Shown here one piece after another: positions 2,289 through 56,800 of a DNA stretch of 64,000 nucleotides. Origin of the DNA: an uncultured Myxococcales bacterium (GTDB taxonomy: Bacteria > Myxococcota_A > UBA9042 > DTJE01); contig CALJUR010000081.1 of the NCBI GenBank assembly GCA_937975765.1, positions 1,706 to 65,705 of the forward strand, in the 5' to 3' direction. The position numbers and the translations under genes are program-made. Within the stretch, counting starts at the first letter, position 1. The number at the start of each line of letters is the position of its first letter. The notes under the pieces are model-generated. The model had not been told where the DNA came from and did no database searches. It was given only the letters and a program-made list of their open reading frames with translations.

Positions 2289-3718
2289 CGCGTCCCCTCG
2301 GGCCCGTCCATCAGGACGATGCCCATGCCGGACAACTCGGCCCGCAGCGCGTCGGCCTTCGCGAAGTCCTTCGCGGCCCGCGCGGCGATGCGGTCGGCCA
2401 CCAGCGCCTCGATCCGCGCCCGGTCCAGGCCGTTGCGGGCCAGCTTGCGGTCGCGGATCCCGGACAGCACCTCGGCCGGGTCCCGCTGGCACAGCCCCAG
2501 CACCTTCCCCAGGTCCGCCAGCATCTCCAGCGCCGTGGCCACCGCCTCGGCCTTCTGGGTGCCCTTGCCCTTCATCGTCAGCGCGTCGTTCAGGCGCCGC
2601 GCCGCGTCGGCCACCAGCGCCAGCCCCGCGGCCGAGTTGAAGTCGTCGTCCATCGCCGCGACGAATTTCTCCTTCGCGGCCTCGACCTCGACGGGGTTCG
2701 AGTCGCACGGCGTCCGTTCCAGCAGCGCCCGCGCCGCCTGCACGGTCTCGTACAGGTACTCGACCCGGTTCTCGGCCTCGGACACGGCCCCGTCGGTGAA
2801 GTTGATGGGGCTGCGGTAGTGCGTGGTCAACAGGAAGTACCGCAGCGACTCGGGGTGGAACCGGGCGGTGACCTCCTGGATCGTGAAGAAGTTGCCCAGC
2901 GACTTGGACATCTTCTCGGAATCGACGTTGACGAAGCCGTTGTGCATCCAGGTGCGCACGAACTCCTTGCCGGTCGCGGCCCAGGACTGGGCGCGCTCGT
3001 TCTCGTGGTGCGGGAAGACCAGGTCCATGCCGCCGCCGTGCAGGTCGAAGACCTCGCCCAGGTACTGCGACGACATGGCGCTGCACTCGATGTGCCAGCC
3101 GGGCCGGCCCGAACCCCACGGGCTGTCCCACGCGGGCTCGCCGGGCTTCGCCGCCTTCCACAGCGCGAAGTCCATCGGGTGGCGCTTGCCCGGCTCGGAC
3201 GGGTCGACGCGGTCGGAGGCGCCGGCCTGCATGTCGTCCAGCTTGCGCCCGGACAGTTGCAGGTAGCCGGGGAACGACGAGATGTCGAAGTAGACGTCGC
3301 CGCCCGCCACGTACGCGTGCCCGCGATCCACGATCGACTGCACCATCGCGAGGATCTGCGGCATGTGGTCCGTGACGCGCGGCTCGACGTCGGCGCGCGC
3401 CACGCCCAGCGCGTCCATGTCCTCGTGGAACGCCTCGATGTTGCGCGTCGTCAACTCGGTCACCGGCACGCCGGCCTCGTTCGACCGCCGGATGATCTTG
3501 TCGTCCACGTCCGTGAAGTTGCGGACGTAGGTGACCTCGTAGCCGCGCCAGCGCAGGTACCGGAGGATCACGTCGAAGGCCACGTAAGCCCGCGCGTGCC
3601 CGATGTGGCAGCGGTCGTACACGGTCACGCCGCACACGTACATCCCCACCTTGCCGGGCTGGATCGTCTCGAAGGGTTCCTTCGCGCGGGTGAACGTGTT
3701 GAAGACCTTCAGGCTCAC
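2273..3718 (-). CDS. cysS: Cysteine--tRNA ligase
   Basis: 481-aa class-I aminoacyl-tRNA synthetase. It carries the HIGH motif (CHIGHARAY), KMSKS, and zinc/cysteine-binding residues typical of CysS. Confidence 0.93.
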   Translation of the reverse strand: MSLKVFNTFTRAKEPFETIQPGKVGMYVCGVTVYDRCHIGHARAYVAFDVILRYLRWRGYEVTYVRNFTDVDDKIIRRSNEAGVPVTELTTRNIEAFHEDMDALGVARADVEPRVTDHMPQILAMVQSIVDRGHAYVAGGDVYFDISSFPGYLQLSGRKLDDMQAGASDRVDPSEPGKRHPMDFALWKAAKPGEPAWDSPWGSGRPGWHIECSAMSSQYLGEVFDLHGGGMDLVFPHHENERAQSWAATGKEFVRTWMHNGFVNVDSEKMSKSLGNFFTIQEVTARFHPESLRYFLLTTHYRSPINFTDGAVSEAENRVEYLYETVQAARALLERTPCDSNPVEVEAAKEKFVAAMDDDFNSAAGLALVADAARRLNDALTMKGKGTQKAEAVATALEMLADLGKVLGLCQRDPAEVLSGIRDRKLARNGLDRARIEALVADRIAARAAKDFAKADALRAELSGMGIVLMDGPEGTRWKVA

Positions 3719-3792
3719 GGGGTTTCCTCGCCTTCGCGGACGGGCGGAAACCTACCGGTTGCGCGGGGATCTGTCAATCGGACGGGCGGCCC

Positions 3793-5274
3793 TTGCGCGA
3801 TCGTGAAACCGCGTCCATCATCCCGCGCATGGACTTCGCGAAACACGGTTCGCTGGTCGCGGCGCTGCTTTACGTGGTGGCGGTCGGAACGCTGCTGGCC
3901 GGGCAGTCCCCGGTCGTGCCGCAGCCGGTCCTGAACAGCCTGGAATTGCGGCCCTTGCTGCTGCTGGGGCGGATGATCGAGCCCCCGGAAGCCCCCGCGG
4001 CCGGGCCGGCCGAGGCGGACCCGCCGGCGTCCCCGTGGGTCCCGGCCGGTGAGGGGGTGCTGCCGGGCCGCTCCGACCCGCAGGCCGGCGAGTGGGAGGA
4101 ACTGTCCCTCATGCTGCGTGCGGGCCTGGAGTCCGTGGCGCACCGGCCCCTGGCCACCCGCGAGGACCCGTTGCGGGCGGCCGCCGTCGCCGCCGGCCTG
4201 GGCGCGCGCCACCTGGTGCCGCCGTATGCCGGGCCCCTGGCCGCCGAAGACCCCGCGGCCGCCGCGCTGGTCCGCTGGGCGTTCGATCCCGCCTCGCCGG
4301 CCTCCGACGCGGACCTGGCCGCACTGCGCGATGCGGGCCTGCCACCTCCCCTGGGCGACATGGCCGTCGCGGCGGTGGCGCAGGCCGCCGGGCGGACCGA
4401 CGACGCCGCCACCGCCCGGGCCGGCTGGATCGCGGCCGCCGACGAGGTGCGCCAGTGGGCCTCCCTGGCGACGATCGTCTTCGCGGCCGCGCTGGTCGTC
4501 GGGACGGTGCTGTGGTTCCGGATGCGGCGGCTGCAGTGGGAGGCGATGGCGGCGCTGCGCCTCCGGCCCACCGTCGATTCGCTGCTGCCGGTCGCACGGG
4601 TGCTGGCGTACTTCATGGCCGTCTACCTGACGGTGGGGGTGTTCGGGCCGGACCTGCTGGCCGGCCTGGAGATCCCGGGCGGCGTGGCCGGGATGGCCAC
4701 GCTGCTGTACCTGGTCAACGCGGTGGCGGGGATCGCCCTGGTGCTGGCGACGGGCCGCTCCGCCGCCGGCGAGCCGGCCGCCGACCTGCTGGGGCTGCGG
4801 ACGATGGGGCCCTCGCGCGCCCCGGCCGGCGCGGCCTGGGGCGTGGCCGGGTGGTGCATGCTGGTGCCGGCCGTCCTGTCGGCGACCTTCTTCGCGGCGA
4901 CCGTGCTGGGCATCGGCGGGAACCCGTTCGACAACCCCGTCGCGATGCTGCTGGCGATGGACCCCTCGCCCGACGTGGTCGCGCTGCTGCTGTTCTCGAC
5001 GGTGGTCCTGGCGCCGCTGTTCGAGGAGATGCTGTTCCGCGGCTTCCTGCACGGGCGCCTGCGCCGGCACTTCACGCCGTACGGGGCCGCGGCTCTCTCG
5101 GGCCTGCTGTTCGCGATCGCGCACCTGTCCGTGTCGAACCTGCTGCCCCTGTGGGCGCTGGGGTTCGCGCTGGGGATCCTGTACGACCGCACCCGGACGC
5201 TGTGGGCCCCGATGGTCGCGCATGCCCTGTGGAACCTGGGTACCGCCGGGGTCCTGCTGACCCTCTTCTCCTGA
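3793..5274 (+). CDS. CPBP family intramembrane glutamic endopeptidase (CAAX protease/Abi-like)
   Basis: Multi-pass membrane protein with CPBP motifs EEMLFRG, FAIAHL and HALWN in its C-terminal third. The alternative start M at 3829 is also possible. Confidence 0.75.
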   Translation: MRDRETASIIPRMDFAKHGSLVAALLYVVAVGTLLAGQSPVVPQPVLNSLELRPLLLLGRMIEPPEAPAAGPAEADPPASPWVPAGEGVLPGRSDPQAGEWEELSLMLRAGLESVAHRPLATREDPLRAAAVAAGLGARHLVPPYAGPLAAEDPAAAALVRWAFDPASPASDADLAALRDAGLPPPLGDMAVAAVAQAAGRTDDAATARAGWIAAADEVRQWASLATIVFAAALVVGTVLWFRMRRLQWEAMAALRLRPTVDSLLPVARVLAYFMAVYLTVGVFGPDLLAGLEIPGGVAGMATLLYLVNAVAGIALVLATGRSAAGEPAADLLGLRTMGPSRAPAGAAWGVAGWCMLVPAVLSATFFAATVLGIGGNPFDNPVAMLLAMDPSPDVVALLLFSTVVLAPLFEEMLFRGFLHGRLRRHFTPYGAAALSGLLFAIAHLSVSNLLPLWALGFALGILYDRTRTLWAPMVAHALWNLGTAGVLLTLFS

Positions 5275-5430
5275 CGTTTCCGGCCTTGGGCCTTCCCCGC
5301 GCCCCGCCACCGGATACCCTGCATTTTCGCGGGGATTTTTCCCGCCCCATTGACGATCCCCCCGTCCGCCCCCATCGTGAAGGACGCGAACAAAAGCGTG
5401 CGTTCTCCGGACGCGAAGGGAGGTGGATCC

Positions 5431-38901: not shown

Positions 38902-39189
38902 GGATGACTCCTCATGCTTTCGCGCGCCAACGAGCGCCGAACGAACACCGAGGGGCGGAGATTATTCCTCGCGCGCGCGGAGATCAAGCGTTCCTCCCCG
39001 CCCCGACAAATAGGGACAGCCTCCAATTTCCGGGGTGTTTGCTGGATCCGGATATCCGCAATACCCGCTGGTTGCGTCCGCATCGACGGCGACCTGCCCC
39101 GGGTTTCCAGGCACCGGGAAAAGGGAGGCTGGCCCCGTTTCCCCAGACCGGGACAGGCGGCCCCCTTGCAGGGCGCCCGGGACGGCCTC

Positions 39190-43766: not shown

Positions 43767-44381
43767 GTGGCCGGGGTCAGCAGGGCGGATCGTCGCGAAC
43801 AGATCATCGAGGCCGCCCTGACCGTCTTCGCGGACAAGGGCTACCACCCGGCCGGCGTGGCCGACATCATCCAGCAGACCGGCATCGCCCGCGGCACGTT
43901 CTACCTGTACTTCACGGGGAAGCGGGCGGTGTTCGATGCGGTGCTGGACGAGATCTTCCTGCGAATCCTGGAACAGTTGCACCCGGTGAAGGTGCCCGAC
44001 CCCTGGGACGAGCAGGTGGTGATCGACCAGGTGCGCGGCAACGCCCAGCGGCTGGCGCGCCTGATGCTGGCCAACCCCCGCAGCGTGCGGGTGCTGTTCG
44101 GCGAGGCGGCGGGACTGGACCGCGAGGCCAGTGCGCGGCTGTCGGGGTTCTACGACCGGCTGGGCCACTGGGTGGGCGAGTCGCTGCAGGAGGGCATCCG
44201 GCTGGGGATCGTGCGGCCCTGCGACACGCTGGTGACGGCGCACGCCCTGATCGGCGCGCTGCGCGGCATGCTGTGGGCCTGGGCCGTCGGGCTGGTGCCG
44301 CTGGACGAGGCCACCCTGGTCGAGGAGACGCTGCGGCTGACCCGCGAGGGCGTGCTGCGGACCCGCGACCGCCCCGCCTAA
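43767..44381 (+). CDS. TetR/AcrR family transcriptional regulator (GTG start)
   Basis: N-terminal HTH EQIIEAALTVFADKGYHPAGVADIIQQTGIARGTFYLYF. It lies 50 nt downstream of the activase gene on the same strand. Confidence 0.8.
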   Translation: MAGVSRADRREQIIEAALTVFADKGYHPAGVADIIQQTGIARGTFYLYFTGKRAVFDAVLDEIFLRILEQLHPVKVPDPWDEQVVIDQVRGNAQRLARLMLANPRSVRVLFGEAAGLDREASARLSGFYDRLGHWVGESLQEGIRLGIVRPCDTLVTAHALIGALRGMLWAWAVGLVPLDEATLVEETLRLTREGVLRTRDRPA

Positions 44382-44526
44382 TTCAGGCGTAATTCAGGGA
44401 CAGTCACCATTATTGTTAAGACATCCCATTGGATTTGTTCATAAACACCCAAGTCGGACAATACTATCTTATAAAATCCATATGTTAGCCTACGAATAAT
44501 GGTGACTGTCCCTGAATTCCTGAATT
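44380..44526. repeat. AT-rich 147-bp element bounded by 32-35 bp inverted repeats (perfect 23-bp core), each arm ending in tandem AATTCAGG octamers; MITE-like element or an unusual long-stem hairpin
   Basis: Seen directly. The left arm is aattcaggcgtaattcagggacagtcaccattatt (44380-44414). The right arm is aataatggtgactgtccctgaattcctgaatt (44495-44526). An 80-nt loop of visibly low GC sits between them. The element begins 1 nt inside the TetR stop codon and ends 24 nt before the stop of the convergent porin gene. Confidence 0.6.
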
Positions 44527-44550
44527 GTGAGCTGCGCCTGAACCGGGGGG

Positions 44551-45780
44551 TCAGAAGAACAACTGGGCCTGGGTGGTGAAGCACTTGATCCAGGGCGCGG
44601 AGGCCAGGTTGCCGGTCTTCTGCGCGCCGAACTCCGTCTTGACGTTGACCGCCGCGTTGCGGATCCAGAAGTTCAGCCCGCCCTTCACCACCAGGAGGTC
44701 GCGGTCCTCCTGCCGGCCGCGGAACCAGTCCACCGAGAACACCGGCTCGAAGAAGGACCACCGGTAGCCCACCTCGCCCAGCAGCCCGATGCCGGAATTG
44801 CGCGACGGGACGACGCGGCGGGTCCCGTCCCCGTCGTACTTCAGCTCGTTGCCGTGGTCGTACCAGAAAAGGCCCATCATCGCGACGACCTCGTGGTCCT
44901 TGTCCGGGCCGAACGGCACGTCCACGAACACGTCCGCGGAGACCCCCACCGCGTCCCGGACGGTGCCCTTCCTTGCGACCGCCCTCGCGCCGTCCAGGTC
45001 GGACGGGGCGTCCATCACGGCGTCGTGCTGGTAGTCGAAGCCCGCTCCGATCGACAGCGTGGGCGACCTGCCGAACGTGATGCCCTTCGCGAAGAACTCC
45101 GTCTCGGTGCCCAGGATGCTGTAGCGCAGGTGGCCCGCGAACCGCGGCCAGTCCTCGGGGTTCGAGGTCAGCACGGCCTTCCCGGCGGCGTCCTTCAGGA
45201 CCTCGTCCTTCGCGTCCTTCTGCAACGCGGTCTTCTGGGTCCCGTTGAAGACGCCCAGCCGGTACTGCAGCCTGCGGTTCGCAACGTACCCGCGCAACTG
45301 GATACCCAGGTCGCGCAGGTTCTTGTTGGACCCCTCCGGGAGGCGCAGCAGCCCCAGGTGAAAGTCCAGGCCGTTCAGGCCCGGCGCACTCTGGTGGCCG
45401 TGCCGGGCGAAGGGCAGCAGCATCATGCCGGCATCAACCATGAACTCGTCCACGACCTTGAAGGTCACGAACGCGTCGGAAATGATCATCGCGGCGCTCC
45501 AGTCGCCCCCCTTGCCCCAGTTCGGCTGCTCGGTGTCCACGAAGAACGAGATCCCCTTCCAGACGTCGCCCCACAGCAGCATCCGCACGCGCCGCAGGTA
45601 GAAATCCTTGCTCCAGGCGGTTCCGTCGGGCGCGCCCTTCTCCTGGAACTGGGCCTGGAACTGGATCAGGGCCGCCACGTTCAGGTTCGTGTGCTCGCCC
45701 AGGTCGAACTTCCAGGCGAAGGCGGGCGACGAGGCCAGCAGGATCGCCGCGACCGCCACGATGCGGGAGAACCGGTGCAT
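44551..45780 (-). CDS. Outer-membrane beta-barrel porin-like protein
   Basis: The listed 1039-aa ORF is mostly artefact. The in-frame ATG at 45780 gives MHRFSRIVAVAAILLASSPAFA (signal peptide) and a 409-aa protein with alternating amphipathic beta-strands. It ends in aromatic residues (..QAQLFF), typical of OM barrels. GGAG Shine-Dalgarno upstream. Confidence 0.6.
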   Translation of the reverse strand: MHRFSRIVAVAAILLASSPAFAWKFDLGEHTNLNVAALIQFQAQFQEKGAPDGTAWSKDFYLRRVRMLLWGDVWKGISFFVDTEQPNWGKGGDWSAAMIISDAFVTFKVVDEFMVDAGMMLLPFARHGHQSAPGLNGLDFHLGLLRLPEGSNKNLRDLGIQLRGYVANRRLQYRLGVFNGTQKTALQKDAKDEVLKDAAGKAVLTSNPEDWPRFAGHLRYSILGTETEFFAKGITFGRSPTLSIGAGFDYQHDAVMDAPSDLDGARAVARKGTVRDAVGVSADVFVDVPFGPDKDHEVVAMMGLFWYDHGNELKYDGDGTRRVVPSRNSGIGLLGEVGYRWSFFEPVFSVDWFRGRQEDRDLLVVKGGLNFWIRNAAVNVKTEFGAQKTGNLASAPWIKCFTTQAQLFF

Positions 45781-53899: not shown

Positions 53900-56800
53900 T
53901 CAGGGGCACCAGGCAGTGGCGCCGGGCACGGTCACGTAGCCGGAAGGTCCGAAGCCGACGCAGACGGCCGGCCGGTCGGGGTGGCTGCAGTCCACGGCAC
54001 CGGCCGGGCAGGCCGGCGAGACCAGCGCCAGGTAGATGCCCGAGTCCCGCAGGTCCGTCCCGTCGTACCACGCCACGGCCGCCCAGTAGGGGTCCAGCCG
54101 CGCGACCGCCGGCGATGCGGACCCCTTCTCGACCGTCGGGGAGACCACCAGGTCGGCCCCGGGGACGCCGGCGGCATCCAGCGGGGTCAGCAGCACCCGG
54201 GTGTCGGTCGCGGCTACTCCCACCGAGGCCAGCAGGGCCCGGTCGTCGAACGCGACGAGGTCGGGCGCGTAGCGTCGCAGCCAGGTCGTCGCCGGGAAGG
54301 TCGCCTCGCCGGCCGACTGCAGGTCCGCCGCCACCCGGGTGCCGCCGCGCAGCACGCCGGCGTCCCGCTCGGCCACCCAGGCGACGCGATCCGTGCCGAC
54401 GGGTGCCAGGGCCAGGTCGCGCAGCGCGTCCCCGCCGGTGTCCGCCTGCACCTCGTCGCCCGCGGGCTTCCCGTCGACATCCAGCCGCCGCAGCATCACA
54501 CGGTGGACCGGGCCCTCCTGTTCCGAGATCCACGCCGCCACGCCCCCGTTGCCGACCGATGCCAGCTTCGGACGCCGCTGGATCCCCGCGGTGTCCTGGT
54601 TGAGGAGGGTGCCGGTGGGGTCGAAGGTGGGGGTGTCGTTCAGGATTTGCCACCCACCAATCGCGATGTCCAACGGAGAAGAACCATCGATAGAGAATGA
54701 CCAAGAGATAAGACCATTCCCATCGAGTGTTTCCGACAACGATGGTTCGAATCGATCCTCCTGATAGATTCCGACAGACGAGGTGAGAACTGACAGAGCA
54801 GACTTCGTCCCGTCGTCGTTTTTAGTCAGAGCAAGAACTTGCCGTTTTGTCCCCCCGAAGGACACCATCGACCCAGGCTCATCTCTTCTCGAAGCAATGG
54901 AGATAGCAAAACGCCCCTCCTGAGTTTCAAGGCTTTCTGCGGAGACTTTCTCCCAATCACGAACCTCAAGATCGACACCAAGTCCGCCACAAAGAACATC
55001 TAGTTGTTTCTTCGCCGCAAGATGAAGTCCGGATCTTCCGGCATTGGAAGATGCAACGATCTCGCTGTACCCCTTCCCCGCCGCGACCAGCACCGGGCCC
55101 AGCGGGGCACAACCGCTGCGCGCCCACAGGTAGAGGTCCAGGGTCGCCACGACCCCGCCCGCCGCGACCCGCACGGCCAGGTCCACCGGGTCACCGTCCC
55201 CCAGCCACGACCACGCCATCCGGGTCCGGCCGTCCACGACCCGGCACTCGTCCGGCGACACCACGAGTTCGCCCCGGTACAGTTTCACCGCGTCGCAGGC
55301 CGAGGCGCCCGCATCCAGGACCAGCAGCGCCAGGCCCGAAGGCACCCGCCGCCCCGGGATCCGGAAGGACGCTCCCGGCTCCCCTTCCGCGGGCCCCGCG
55401 CCCGCCTCCCCGCGCATCCCCTTCCCGCCGCTCCACCGGAATCCCGGCACCGCCCCGCCCGTCCGCAGGTCCCACCCCAGCAGCCGCCGCGGCAGCCGCA
55501 GGTCCAGTTCCTGGCACTCGCCGGTCCCCGCCTGGCACCAGGTCGGCCCGCACTCGCCCGCCGACGCCGCGCACCGTCCCTCCGGCTCGCCATCCCAGGC
55601 GCAGGTCCCCGCGTCGCATCGCTCGGCCGTGCAGGGGTCCCCGTCGTCGCAGTCCCCGTCGCCGACGCAGCACCCCGGGGTCCACGCCCCGGGAACGCAA
55701 CTCCCCGCCCGGCAGGCGTCCCCGGCCGTGCACGGGTTGGCGTCCTGGCACGGGGTCGCGTCCAGGTCCCGGTGCCGGCACCCGCCGGTCGCCGGGTCGC
55801 AGTCGTCCTCCGTGCACGGGTTGCCGTCGTCGCAGTCCATCGCCGTCCCGACGCACTGGGCCTGGGCGCTGCACGCGTCCAGCACCGTGCACGGGTCCCC
55901 GTCGTCGCACCCGATCGCGACCCCCAGCGGCGTCCACGCACATCCCGTCGCCGGCACGCAGGTGTCCGACGTGCAGGGGTTCCCGTCGTCGCAGTCCATC
56001 GCCGCCCCGGGCACGCACGCCCCGTTCGCGCACGCGTCCCCGGCGGTGCACAGGTCCCCGTCCTCGCAGGCCGCGCCGTTCGCGGGCGGGTGCCGGCAGG
56101 CCCCCGTCGAGGGATCGCACCGGTCCTCGGTGCACGGGTCGCCATCGACGCATCGCGGCCGGTGCCGGCATTCCCCGTCCAGGCACGTCCCGGCCTCGCT
56201 GCACACCGTCGCGGCCTCGCACTCGGTCCCGTCCGCGCGCGCCTCCTCGCCGCAACGGCCGGTCGCCTCGTCGCAGGTGGCCACCCGGCAGGGGTCGGCC
56301 GGCACCGGGCACTTCGTCAGGCTGCCGCCCGTCACGCACCGCTGGCTGGCCGGGTCGCACGACAGCGGCGGGGCGCAGAGGGTCTTCGGGCCGGGGCAAT
56401 CCTCGTCCTTCCCGCACTCGCACTCGTTGGCGCCCGCCTGGCAGGCCCCGCCCACGCACCGGTCCTTCGTGCACGCATTGGCATCCCGGTCGCAGCCCTC
56501 GCCGTCCGCCAGCGACTCGTACCGGCACTCCCCCGTCGCCTCGTCGCAGCCGCCGGACAGGCATTCCCGGACCGGGCACGCCTTCCGGCGCACGGGCACG
56601 CAGGCACCCGACACGCACGTCCCGCCGCCCTCCGCGCACCGGTCGATCGGCTGGCATGACGCGCCCTCCCGGGCCTCGTCGGCCACGACCCCGCACGTCC
56701 CGTCCAGGCACGTCCGGCGTCCGCAAGGCCCGGGGTCCAGGGCCGCGCAGTCCGCCTCCGTCCGGCAGGACACCGTCACGTCCCCGGGCACGTCGCTCCC

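Follow-up and report, generated by a model that had tools for sequence, protein, structure and literature searches.

The stretch of DNA analysed here (the window) comprises 64,000 nucleotides of contig CALJUR010000081.1 (assembly GCA_937975765.1, positions 1,706 to 65,705) from an uncultured Myxococcales bacterium, and contains, between the 3' ends of two convergent genes, an AT-rich hairpin element at positions 44380–44526. An earlier reading of the letters without database searches (the sequence-only reading) had singled out this element as a candidate miniature inverted-repeat transposable element (MITE), structured small RNA or strong bidirectional terminator. Here, we describe the anatomy and predicted folding of the element, a family of dispersed repeats to which its arms belong, a transposase gene flanked by the same repeats in the same genome, and an orthologous site in a relative where the element is missing. 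The genes and parts of the locus are as follows.

43767 to 44381, + strand: gene for a TetR-family regulator (Pfam TetR_N PF00440, 8.9e-15), 73% identical to the TetR of locus L076
44380 to 44390, + strand: left outer partial duplication, AATTCAGGcgt, repeating the 5' end of the arm, as read off the sequence
44391 to 44414, + strand: left arm, AATTCAGGGACAGTCACCATTATT, a 24-nt unit conserved in the family (type B "REP/TIR"; repetitive extragenic palindrome/terminal inverted repeat), pointing inward
44415 to 44494, no strand: spacer of 80 nt forming the hairpin loop, AT-rich (GC 0.36), unconserved among family members
44495 to 44518, − strand: right arm, second copy of the 24-nt unit, pointing inward
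44519 to 44526, − strand: right outer duplication, CCTGAATT, pairing with 44380–44387
44527 to 44550, no strand: leftover intergenic DNA, GTGAGCTGCGCCTGAACCGGGGGG, between the element and the porin stop codon
44551 to 45780, − strand: convergent gene for an outer-membrane porin of 409 aa ending in ...AQLFF, a Porin_O_P relative

The arms were identified by a repeat search of the window as two 24-nt sequences, 100% complementary and 80 nt apart, so that the perfect stem reported by the sequence-only reading stands but is 24 nt long, not 23. Outside the arms, further copies of AATTCAGG (the left end reads AATTCAGGcgtAATTCAGG from 44380, and the right end reads CCTGAATTCCTGAATT up to 44526) add 8 bp of pairing and bring the stem to 32–35 nt across 44380–44526, with a 3-nt bulge where CGT intervenes before the second AATTCAGG on the left side, the two copies being contiguous on the right side. 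This agrees with the extension to about 32 bp with a 3-nt indel that had been proposed earlier, as do the length and AT-richness of the loop with what had been reported. The contrast in base composition was likewise confirmed, the GC content of the element being 0.34–0.40 against 0.717 for the window. The window has just one other island of this type, at 54640–54860, which is weaker (GC ~0.46 at 54659–54739), free of palindromes and without a tRNA nearby. Even when 3 mismatches are allowed, the two arms are the only such sites in the 64-kb window, and shuffled sequences (n = 100) give an expectation of 0. The claim that the element fits exactly between its neighbors holds on one side: its first two bases double as the AA of the TetR stop codon (TAA, 44379–44381), a 2-nt overlap, but the porin stop lies 24 nt past the element, which does not quite abut it.

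When folded as single-stranded DNA, the element yielded a predicted energy of −34.9 kcal/mol (z = −8.8), and the folds of the two RNA strands, a check that the sequence-only reading had proposed, yielded −57.2 and −63.2 kcal/mol, one value per strand. Errors in library preparation or assembly can produce long perfect palindromes, for example through a hairpin-induced misjoin. However, five independent assemblies (the NCBI metagenome-assembled genome (MAG) GCA_036844845.1, two ENA assemblies and two Logan assemblies), obtained from different runs and with different pipelines, agree in every base of the region, and the same architecture recurs in many other contigs. Because the sequence is the same in all five, the element is not an assembly artefact, and the probability of a chimeric origin is negligible.

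An exact scan with the 18-mer GGGACAGTCACCATTATT recovered 12 loci in one-genome-per-species contigs and 51 in metagenome contigs. About 20 of these 63 loci, single sites without a family-like flank and often located within genes, were set aside as chance matches, and the remaining loci were assigned to subtypes by the bases just outside the 18-nt core. Subtype B, which is the exact arm of the window, was found on contigs with a GC content of 0.67–0.73, nine of which belong to sample Ga0116157, with several others contributed by an activated-sludge assembly, and subtype A (AATAATAGGGACAGTCACCATTATT) on contigs with a GC content of 0.55–0.65. More variants were detected in MAGs labelled Gemmatimonadota, Kaiserbacteria, Hydrogenedentota and deltaproteobacteria. 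A string at window positions 39013–39027 (AAATAGGGACAGCCTCCAAT) resembles the flank and core of a subtype C arm with 3 mismatches in 15, a likeness expected about 1.6 times per window by chance, and was dismissed.

Apart from the loci of REP-associated tyrosine transposases (RAYTs), the identical arm is present at 12 or more further loci on high-GC metagenome contigs, either as inverted doublets (L026, L029, L046, L050, L054 and L066) or as singlets and decayed pairs (L020/L036, L031, L032, L053 and L068). Seven of the eight subtype B doublets are placed 0–25 nt past a stop codon, in agreement with a published statement that the predominant location of REPs is downstream of coding regions. The consensus of 25 subtype B arms from 14 loci is cAATTCAGGGACAGTCACCATTATT, and conservation drops off abruptly beyond the 24-nt arm. 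The exception to this sharp edge is a trinucleotide, AAC, which follows ATTATT at 7–8 nt inside the arm in the majority of subtype B units, those that flank RAYT genes among them (for example, in the window 44503–44505 region, where the right arm reads ATTATTcgtaggctAAC, and in L026, L029, L046, L062 and L070); the left arm of the window has AAGAC at this position. Speculatively, the conserved AAC might mark a site of cleavage or a guide position.

The sequence-only reading had likened two tandem copies of AATTCAGG at the end of each arm to transposase-binding sub-repeats. Both copies are there, but they find no support as a trait of the family: the family consensus holds the inner AATTCA only, and the outer copy is peculiar to the window element, with something similar only in L054 (AAATTCAG twice, at about 1195–1215). 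Tandem duplications at outer ends were seen on both window arms (AATTCAGG twice), in L054 (AAATTCAG twice), at L070 4697–4745, where two full units follow the RAYT stop with a 20-nt period, and at L013 4593–4640 (= L039), in a Kaiserbacteria MAG, where GTTAACGGGGACA is repeated three times. Tandem clusters of the unit are found in L052 and in the right flank of L070. BLASTN searches with the 171-bp region produced no match in plasmid or phage collections, viral contigs contained 0 matches to the hairpin pattern or the 18-mer, and a full-text literature search with the core 12-mer returned human primer sequences only.

Repeats like those that form the arms also lie on either side of a transposase gene of this genome. 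This gene was located by a protein search with the open reading frame (ORF) of L062 (85% identical) and encodes P0002, a protein of 229 aa, on contig DAIUFA010000008.1 of MAG GCA_036844845.1 (L070 4001–4690), the MAG that also contains the window sequence. Upstream of the gene, at a distance of 114 nt, lies the inward-pointing unit GGGGACAGTCACCATTATT (L070 3888–3905, + strand), and two tandem inward-pointing units begin 7 nt past the stop codon (L070 4697–4745, − strand); the window arm differs from these flanking repeats by one base. For the source genome, the count covers the window (64 kb) and the 8.7 kb surrounding the RAYT gene, which together contain one doublet and the three RAYT-flanking units. 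P0002 belongs to the Pfam family Y1_Tnp (PF01797, IS200-like), and its sole match in PDB is 4ER8 (E. coli TnpA-REP), to which it aligns both in the HUH motif (NHSHVI / EHMHCI) and in the catalytic tyrosine (RYVELNPV / DYIYINPV). Y1_Tnp was also hit by the ORFs that arms bracket on metagenome contigs. For the NCBIfam equivalog "REP-associated tyrosine transposase" (REP_Tyr_transpos), which has a cut-off of 80 bits, the L062 protein scored 81.1 bits and the L038 protein 72.5 bits.

Complete RAYT genes bracketed by arms were recovered from the metagenome 18-mer scan in L062, L038 and L052; in L062 (subtype B) and L038, the arms are about 800 nt apart around an ORF of 229–235 aa. Exact inverted repeats of 18–26 nt surround the RAYT gene in L070, L062, L052, L083 and L081. 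The RAYT loci of L062 and L070, which come from different samples, are collinear, with 90% nucleotide identity over 2.8 kb, which suggests that the RAYT gene has kept its chromosomal position in these two related organisms; the protein search detected P0002 at one locus only. Domesticated, single-copy RAYTs at stable loci have been described previously (PMC5581495). At L018 (= L037), two fragments (1431–1577 and 3660–3827) match only the N-terminal ~50 residues of a RAYT, with a single arm at L018 1703, and could be what is left of a transposase gene after decay or duplication.

Transposases that share just 43–58% identity have an identical 18-nt core beside them, and this core is also found in MAGs assigned to several phyla. 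Among the more distant relatives of P0002, one with 58% identity (L083) keeps GGGGGACAGTCACCTTTTT. Relatives with 51–54% identity (L077, L081) have other TIRs, GGTGACAGGMTAC, in which the inverted repeat is GGTGACAGGATAC or, as a 26-nt exact repeat, CTATTTCGGTGACAGGCTACGAAATC. Because these two loci are flanked by a different inverted repeat, the repeat and the enzyme co-vary between sub-lineages. For the same relatives, the P0110 gene is situated between a MacB/FtsX gene and a urocanase gene in many samples. The TIRs of L070, L062 and L083 contain GGGGACAG, which fits the motif GGGGWSAS, and the dispersed type B arms contain AGGGACAG, which fits it with one base relaxed.

The orthologous gene pair of L076 (porin 71% and TetR 73% identical) has convergent stop codons 19 nt apart, compared to 169 nt in the window, and shows what reads as the site without the element. 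The C-terminus of TetR is …RTRDRPA* in the window and …TTRRE* in this element-free relative. In L076, GTGACTTCTGCGGGGCTCAGG, which includes the TGA stop codon, resembles GTGAGCTGCGCCTGAACC directly to the right of the window element, and window positions 44527–44550 (GTGAGCTGCGCCTGAACCGGGGGG) resemble the whole 19-nt gap of L076 together with the TGA stop (GTGACTTCTGCGGGGCTCAGGCC). From this likeness, we infer that 44527–44550 is the counterpart of the L076 intergenic stretch and that the insertion would have occurred at or just before the ancestral TetR stop codon, the present TAA being supplied by the element; the exact junction is beyond reconstruction at the divergence of L076. Both kinds of trace suggested by the sequence-only reading as evidence of mobility, dispersed copies and empty sites, were found: the arms are present at many unrelated loci, and the L076 site is empty. 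The combination that would have counted against mobility, a single copy with the same sequence at orthologous loci, is not what was observed.

The porin homologues belong to PF07396 and are named "porin [Myxococcota bacterium]"; these names are the basis for placing the lineage, with probability, in Myxococcota. Across relatives, the gap between the porin and TetR genes contains a Metallophos gene (P0125 contig), a PilZ-domain gene (L072 5484–6725), 19 nt (L076 1316–1334) or the hairpin (window 44382–44550), and because two relatives have another gene there, the junction is variable. The loci with these extra genes, L072/P0127 (PilZ) and P0125 (Metallophos), were rejected as empty sites, as were L073–L075, in which the neighboring gene differs. 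L072, whose porin is 68% identical, carries at 5241–5290 a short, diverged doublet of the family, GGGGACAGCCCCCGTTTCT-ccag-AAACTGGTGTCTGTCCCC, 8 nt past the porin stop; either the family settled at the porin 3' end long ago and both relatives retain it, or this doublet was inserted separately.

The empty site bears directly on the possibility that the hairpin is a bidirectional terminator, an mRNA-stabilising hairpin or a structured RNA gene that evolved in place in the host, with an incidental likeness to sequences elsewhere. Such a device would suit the location between convergent genes, the very stable RNA hairpin on both strands and the usual placement of the family 0–25 nt past stop codons. 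However, the orthologous pair of L076 has no hairpin in its 19 nt, and the same 24-nt arm lies beside unrelated genes and around a transposase gene. No terminator-like site was detected in 44200–44700: the stem of 24–32 bp with its 80-nt loop has no T-run or U-tract, as the sequence-only reading had already observed. An Rfam search identified no family for the element, the best match being mgtC_leader with 16.4 bits where the gathering score is 48 (E = 2.8), and produced generic hairpin matches only for five related loci; furthermore, the loop sequence is unconserved. A terminator or structured RNA, both of which had been offered earlier as candidate identities, is therefore very unlikely to be what the element primarily is; as a by-product, a terminator-like effect is still likely.

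A classical MITE would be a deletion derivative of an insertion sequence (IS) with a DDE transposase that binds the 24–35-bp TIRs, with their AATTCAGG sub-repeats, in double-stranded DNA and duplicates its target. The 147-bp length, the long perfect TIRs, the AT-rich interior, the intergenic location and the absence from the orthologous site are all compatible with this origin, as are the co-transcription with neighboring genes and strong RNA hairpins that the element has in common with known MITEs (Correia/NEMIS, RUP, ERIC, Nezha). A target-site duplication, however, was detected neither at the outer boundary (gcct|AATT…AATT|gtga) nor at the inner one (ttcaggcgt|…|cctgaattg), and the flanks of the element (cgccccgcct | … | gtgagctgcg) contain no direct repeat. 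The only genes found between such arms, at four independent loci including the source genome, encode transposases of the Y1/HUH type. MITE copies normally share their interior sequence; here, the interior differs among copies and the 24-nt arms alone are common to them. The outer AATTCAGG copy falls outside the family consensus, and the BLAST searches of plasmid and phage collections gave no match. None of the three MITE hallmarks, DDE transposase, target-site duplication and conserved interior, was seen, which makes a classical MITE highly improbable. The sequence-only reading, which had listed a non-autonomous MITE first among its candidates and suggested looking for a target-site duplication at the borders, was right in spirit in proposing a miniature mobile element, given the dispersed arms, the empty site and the arms that flank a transposase, but the enzyme is Y1/HUH rather than DDE and the interior is not shared.

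Spacer length is nearly constant within a subtype, at 78–80 nt in 5 of 7 subtype B doublets (L026, L029, L046, L054 and the window, 44415–44494) and 51–53 nt in 8 of 11 subtype A doublets (L019, L022, L023, L027, L040, L044, L057 and L058). The spacers are richer in AT than the contigs that host them. Spacers of different type B doublets match one another only as well as shuffled sequences do, and a search for homology in both orientations found none. In the sister subtype A, L019 and L023 have the same arms, spacers that are 90% identical and unrelated flanks, and therefore display the pattern left by transposition of a whole doublet. L019 and L067 have the right flank in common (84% over 286 nt) but not the left one, with spacers of 51 nt and 4 nt, respectively; the doublet may lie at a rearrangement breakpoint, or the spacer may have been replaced.

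The spacer is also where an invertible DNA switch or a paired operator, with arms bound by a recombinase or a regulator such as the adjacent TetR, would hold its promoter. The arms are weakly pseudo-palindromic, like the binding sites of dimeric proteins (GGGAC-A-GTCaCC, with nothing stronger), a TetR gene is adjacent, and the spacer contains TATAAAAT, the tataaaat-like box of the sequence-only reading. The string is present, but it has no matching −35 element, and no sigma-70-like promoter was predicted on either strand of the element. A promoter in this position, at the 3' ends of both neighbors, would moreover drive antisense RNA only. The arms are found beside many unrelated genes without a TetR or recombinase neighbor, and the only protein consistently linked to them is the Y1 transposase. 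A switch or operator is thus extremely improbable.

We conclude that the element is very likely a REPIN-like (REP doublet forming hairpins) non-autonomous doublet of the RAYT/TIRYT (TIR-associated tyrosine transposase) system of this genome, consisting of two 24-nt units and an 80-nt spacer, because the arms flank a RAYT gene in the same genome and are dispersed elsewhere, and because the orthologous site is empty. REPINs are defined by two inverted REPs around a less conserved spacer, the capacity to form a hairpin and the presence of the same repeat next to a RAYT gene (Bertels & Rainey 2011, PLoS Genet 7:e1002132, PMC3116915). The element resembles REPINs (PMC3116915; Nunvar et al. 2010, PMC2817692) in its inverted units of ~24 nt, its less conserved spacer, its hairpin in single-stranded DNA or RNA and its extragenic location. 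The resemblance extends to the occurrence of doublets together with decayed singlets, to the flanking of an apparently single, syntenically stable RAYT gene by the unit and to the absence of a target-site duplication. Here, the spacer is less conserved than the units to a more extreme degree than in published examples; mobility is indicated at an orthologous site (empty in L076) and at different sites (unrelated flanks of L019 and L023); and the same repeat, inverted, surrounds a Y1/HUH RAYT gene in the same genome (L070). Unlike REPINs, however, the element has units that are AT-rich in a 72% GC genome, and whereas Pseudomonas populations are near-identical "quasispecies" within a genome, the spacers are unrelated between copies.

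Several observations weigh against this identification. Two classical REP traits are not seen in the units: a lone type B arm has a minimum free energy of 0 kcal/mol, that is, it does not fold on itself (single type A arms reach only −1.8 to −2.0 kcal/mol), and the GTAG tag is missing from the arm consensus cAATTCAGGGACAGTCACCATTATT, GTAG occurring 11 nt outside the left RAYT-flanking unit and nowhere else among the flanks. The repeats of REPIN/RAYT systems are enriched in extragenic host DNA, at tens to hundreds of copies; here, the other copies of the arm come from metagenome contigs of related organisms rather than demonstrably from the source genome. Unrelated spacers would not be expected if whole doublets had recently been copied within one genome. 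L076 is distant (~72% protein identity), so that its empty site could conceivably result from a deletion in the L076 lineage. Finally, binding, cleavage and transposition of the arms by P0002 are predictions by analogy.

More precisely, the element represents a known kind of mobile-element relic that is newly recorded for this lineage, and is closest to the "TIR dimers" of TIRYTs. "TIRtrons", which encode TIRYTs, have been described as RAYT-like genes with long TIRs, some of which share GGGGWSAS, and which are also scattered as single copies, dimers or clusters (Di Nocera, De Gregorio & Rocco 2013, BMC Genomics 14:522, PMC3733652). The system described here has the same features, with long TIRs unrelated to GTAG REPs, a fit to GGGGWSAS (GGGGACAG) and dispersed singles, dimers and clusters, the likeness being one of motif and architecture. 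P0002, with 229 aa, is longer than the E. coli RAYT (TnpA-REP, 165 aa) and has relatives in Acidobacteriota and similar groups. The TIRtrons presented there come from cultured Acidobacteria, Stenotrophomonas and others, in contrast to the uncultured, high-GC, probably Myxococcota lineage of the window, and a fixed dimer spacer length and an 18-nt core held across phyla are not among the TIRtron features cited above.

IS200/IS605 elements (IS608, ISDra2) have a homologous Y1/HUH domain (PF01797), produce no target-site duplication and presumably share recognition of end structures with the present system. They differ in that their ends are differing sub-terminal hairpins, not inverted copies of one unit, and in that they are multicopy with their own transposase, whereas here the enzyme appears to be encoded at one fixed locus and miniature doublets are dispersed. 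Members of this group transpose as single strands by "peel-and-paste". By analogy, P0002 probably mobilises the doublets in trans. It would recognize the units when the DNA is single-stranded, such as at replication forks, where the doublet folds into a long hairpin, and would cut with its HUH/Tyr active site, as in IS200/IS605 and the E. coli TnpA-REP. The doublet would then be moved or copied to a new site without a target-site duplication being made. Landing at or just before the TetR stop codon, it would have expanded the 19-nt convergent gap to 169 nt and supplied the new TAA. As a side effect, both convergent transcripts would end in a hairpin (−57 to −63 kcal/mol), which probably acts as a barrier to 3' exonucleases or to read-through; in addition, since the hairpin starts at the stop codon, it may dampen the termination of TetR translation. 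Either effect is plausible.

A further-reaching interpretation is that the GGGGACAGTCACC repeat and its transposases form a distinct and very widespread REPIN/RAYT clade that works unlike the Pseudomonas and E. coli models. We regard this as unlikely, though it is suggested by the sharing of the 18-nt core across divergent enzymes and phyla, the non-folding single unit, the fixed spacer length and the unrelated, AT-rich spacers. If it were true, the two units might have to lie a set distance apart for the enzyme, or have their distance gauged by it, for example as a dimer bridging the foot of the long hairpin, and the spacer would drift to an AT-biased mutational equilibrium or be acquired or rewritten when a doublet forms. 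The oddities of the family, namely spacer length, outer duplications and core identity, could stem from long residence under vertical inheritance, during which the arms and their spacing were selected and the spacer underwent neutral, AT-biased drift; alternatively, they could reflect a mechanism other than that of the Pseudomonas model.

Under the identification as a REPIN-like doublet, the AT-rich palindrome that stands out in a genome of 72% GC is accounted for as debris of mobile DNA whose driver is of a known type, and no new RNA or regulatory device is implied by it; the stop codon and last residues of TetR would have been remodelled by the insertion. REPIN/RAYT systems have mostly been characterised in Gammaproteobacteria. 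The set documented here, consisting of transposase, flanking repeats, dispersed doublet and empty site, comes from an uncultured high-GC lineage and is tied to the little-studied "TIRYT" branch, for which the conserved 18-mer provides a simple metagenome probe. The fixed-length, sequence-free spacers are a testable constraint on substrate recognition by the enzyme.

Several other assignments of the arms were considered and rejected. A tRNA 3' end or attachment site is contradicted by upstream sequences that vary by locus and by the absence of a tRNA; for a Tn7-, IS21- or Mu-like end (TGT terminus, sub-terminal repeats), the orientation in the window is wrong, the "ends" facing away into the genes. 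The R'/R'' boxes of an integron attC site are absent, the resemblance to a dif/Xer site is vague, and the start GGGG is all that the arms have in common with a Tn3-type 38-bp inverted repeat. Pairs of DNA-uptake sequences were dismissed on account of the low density of sites and the link of the arm to a transposase.

Upstream of the TetR gene, the window encodes a 1475-aa protein (39235/39290–43717) with BcrAD_BadFG and DUF2229 domains, of the coenzyme A (CoA)-substrate-specific enzyme activase type. This gene adjoins the TetR gene in all relatives examined (L072 and the P0125 contig), and because the adjacency is conserved, we suggest that TetR may regulate it.

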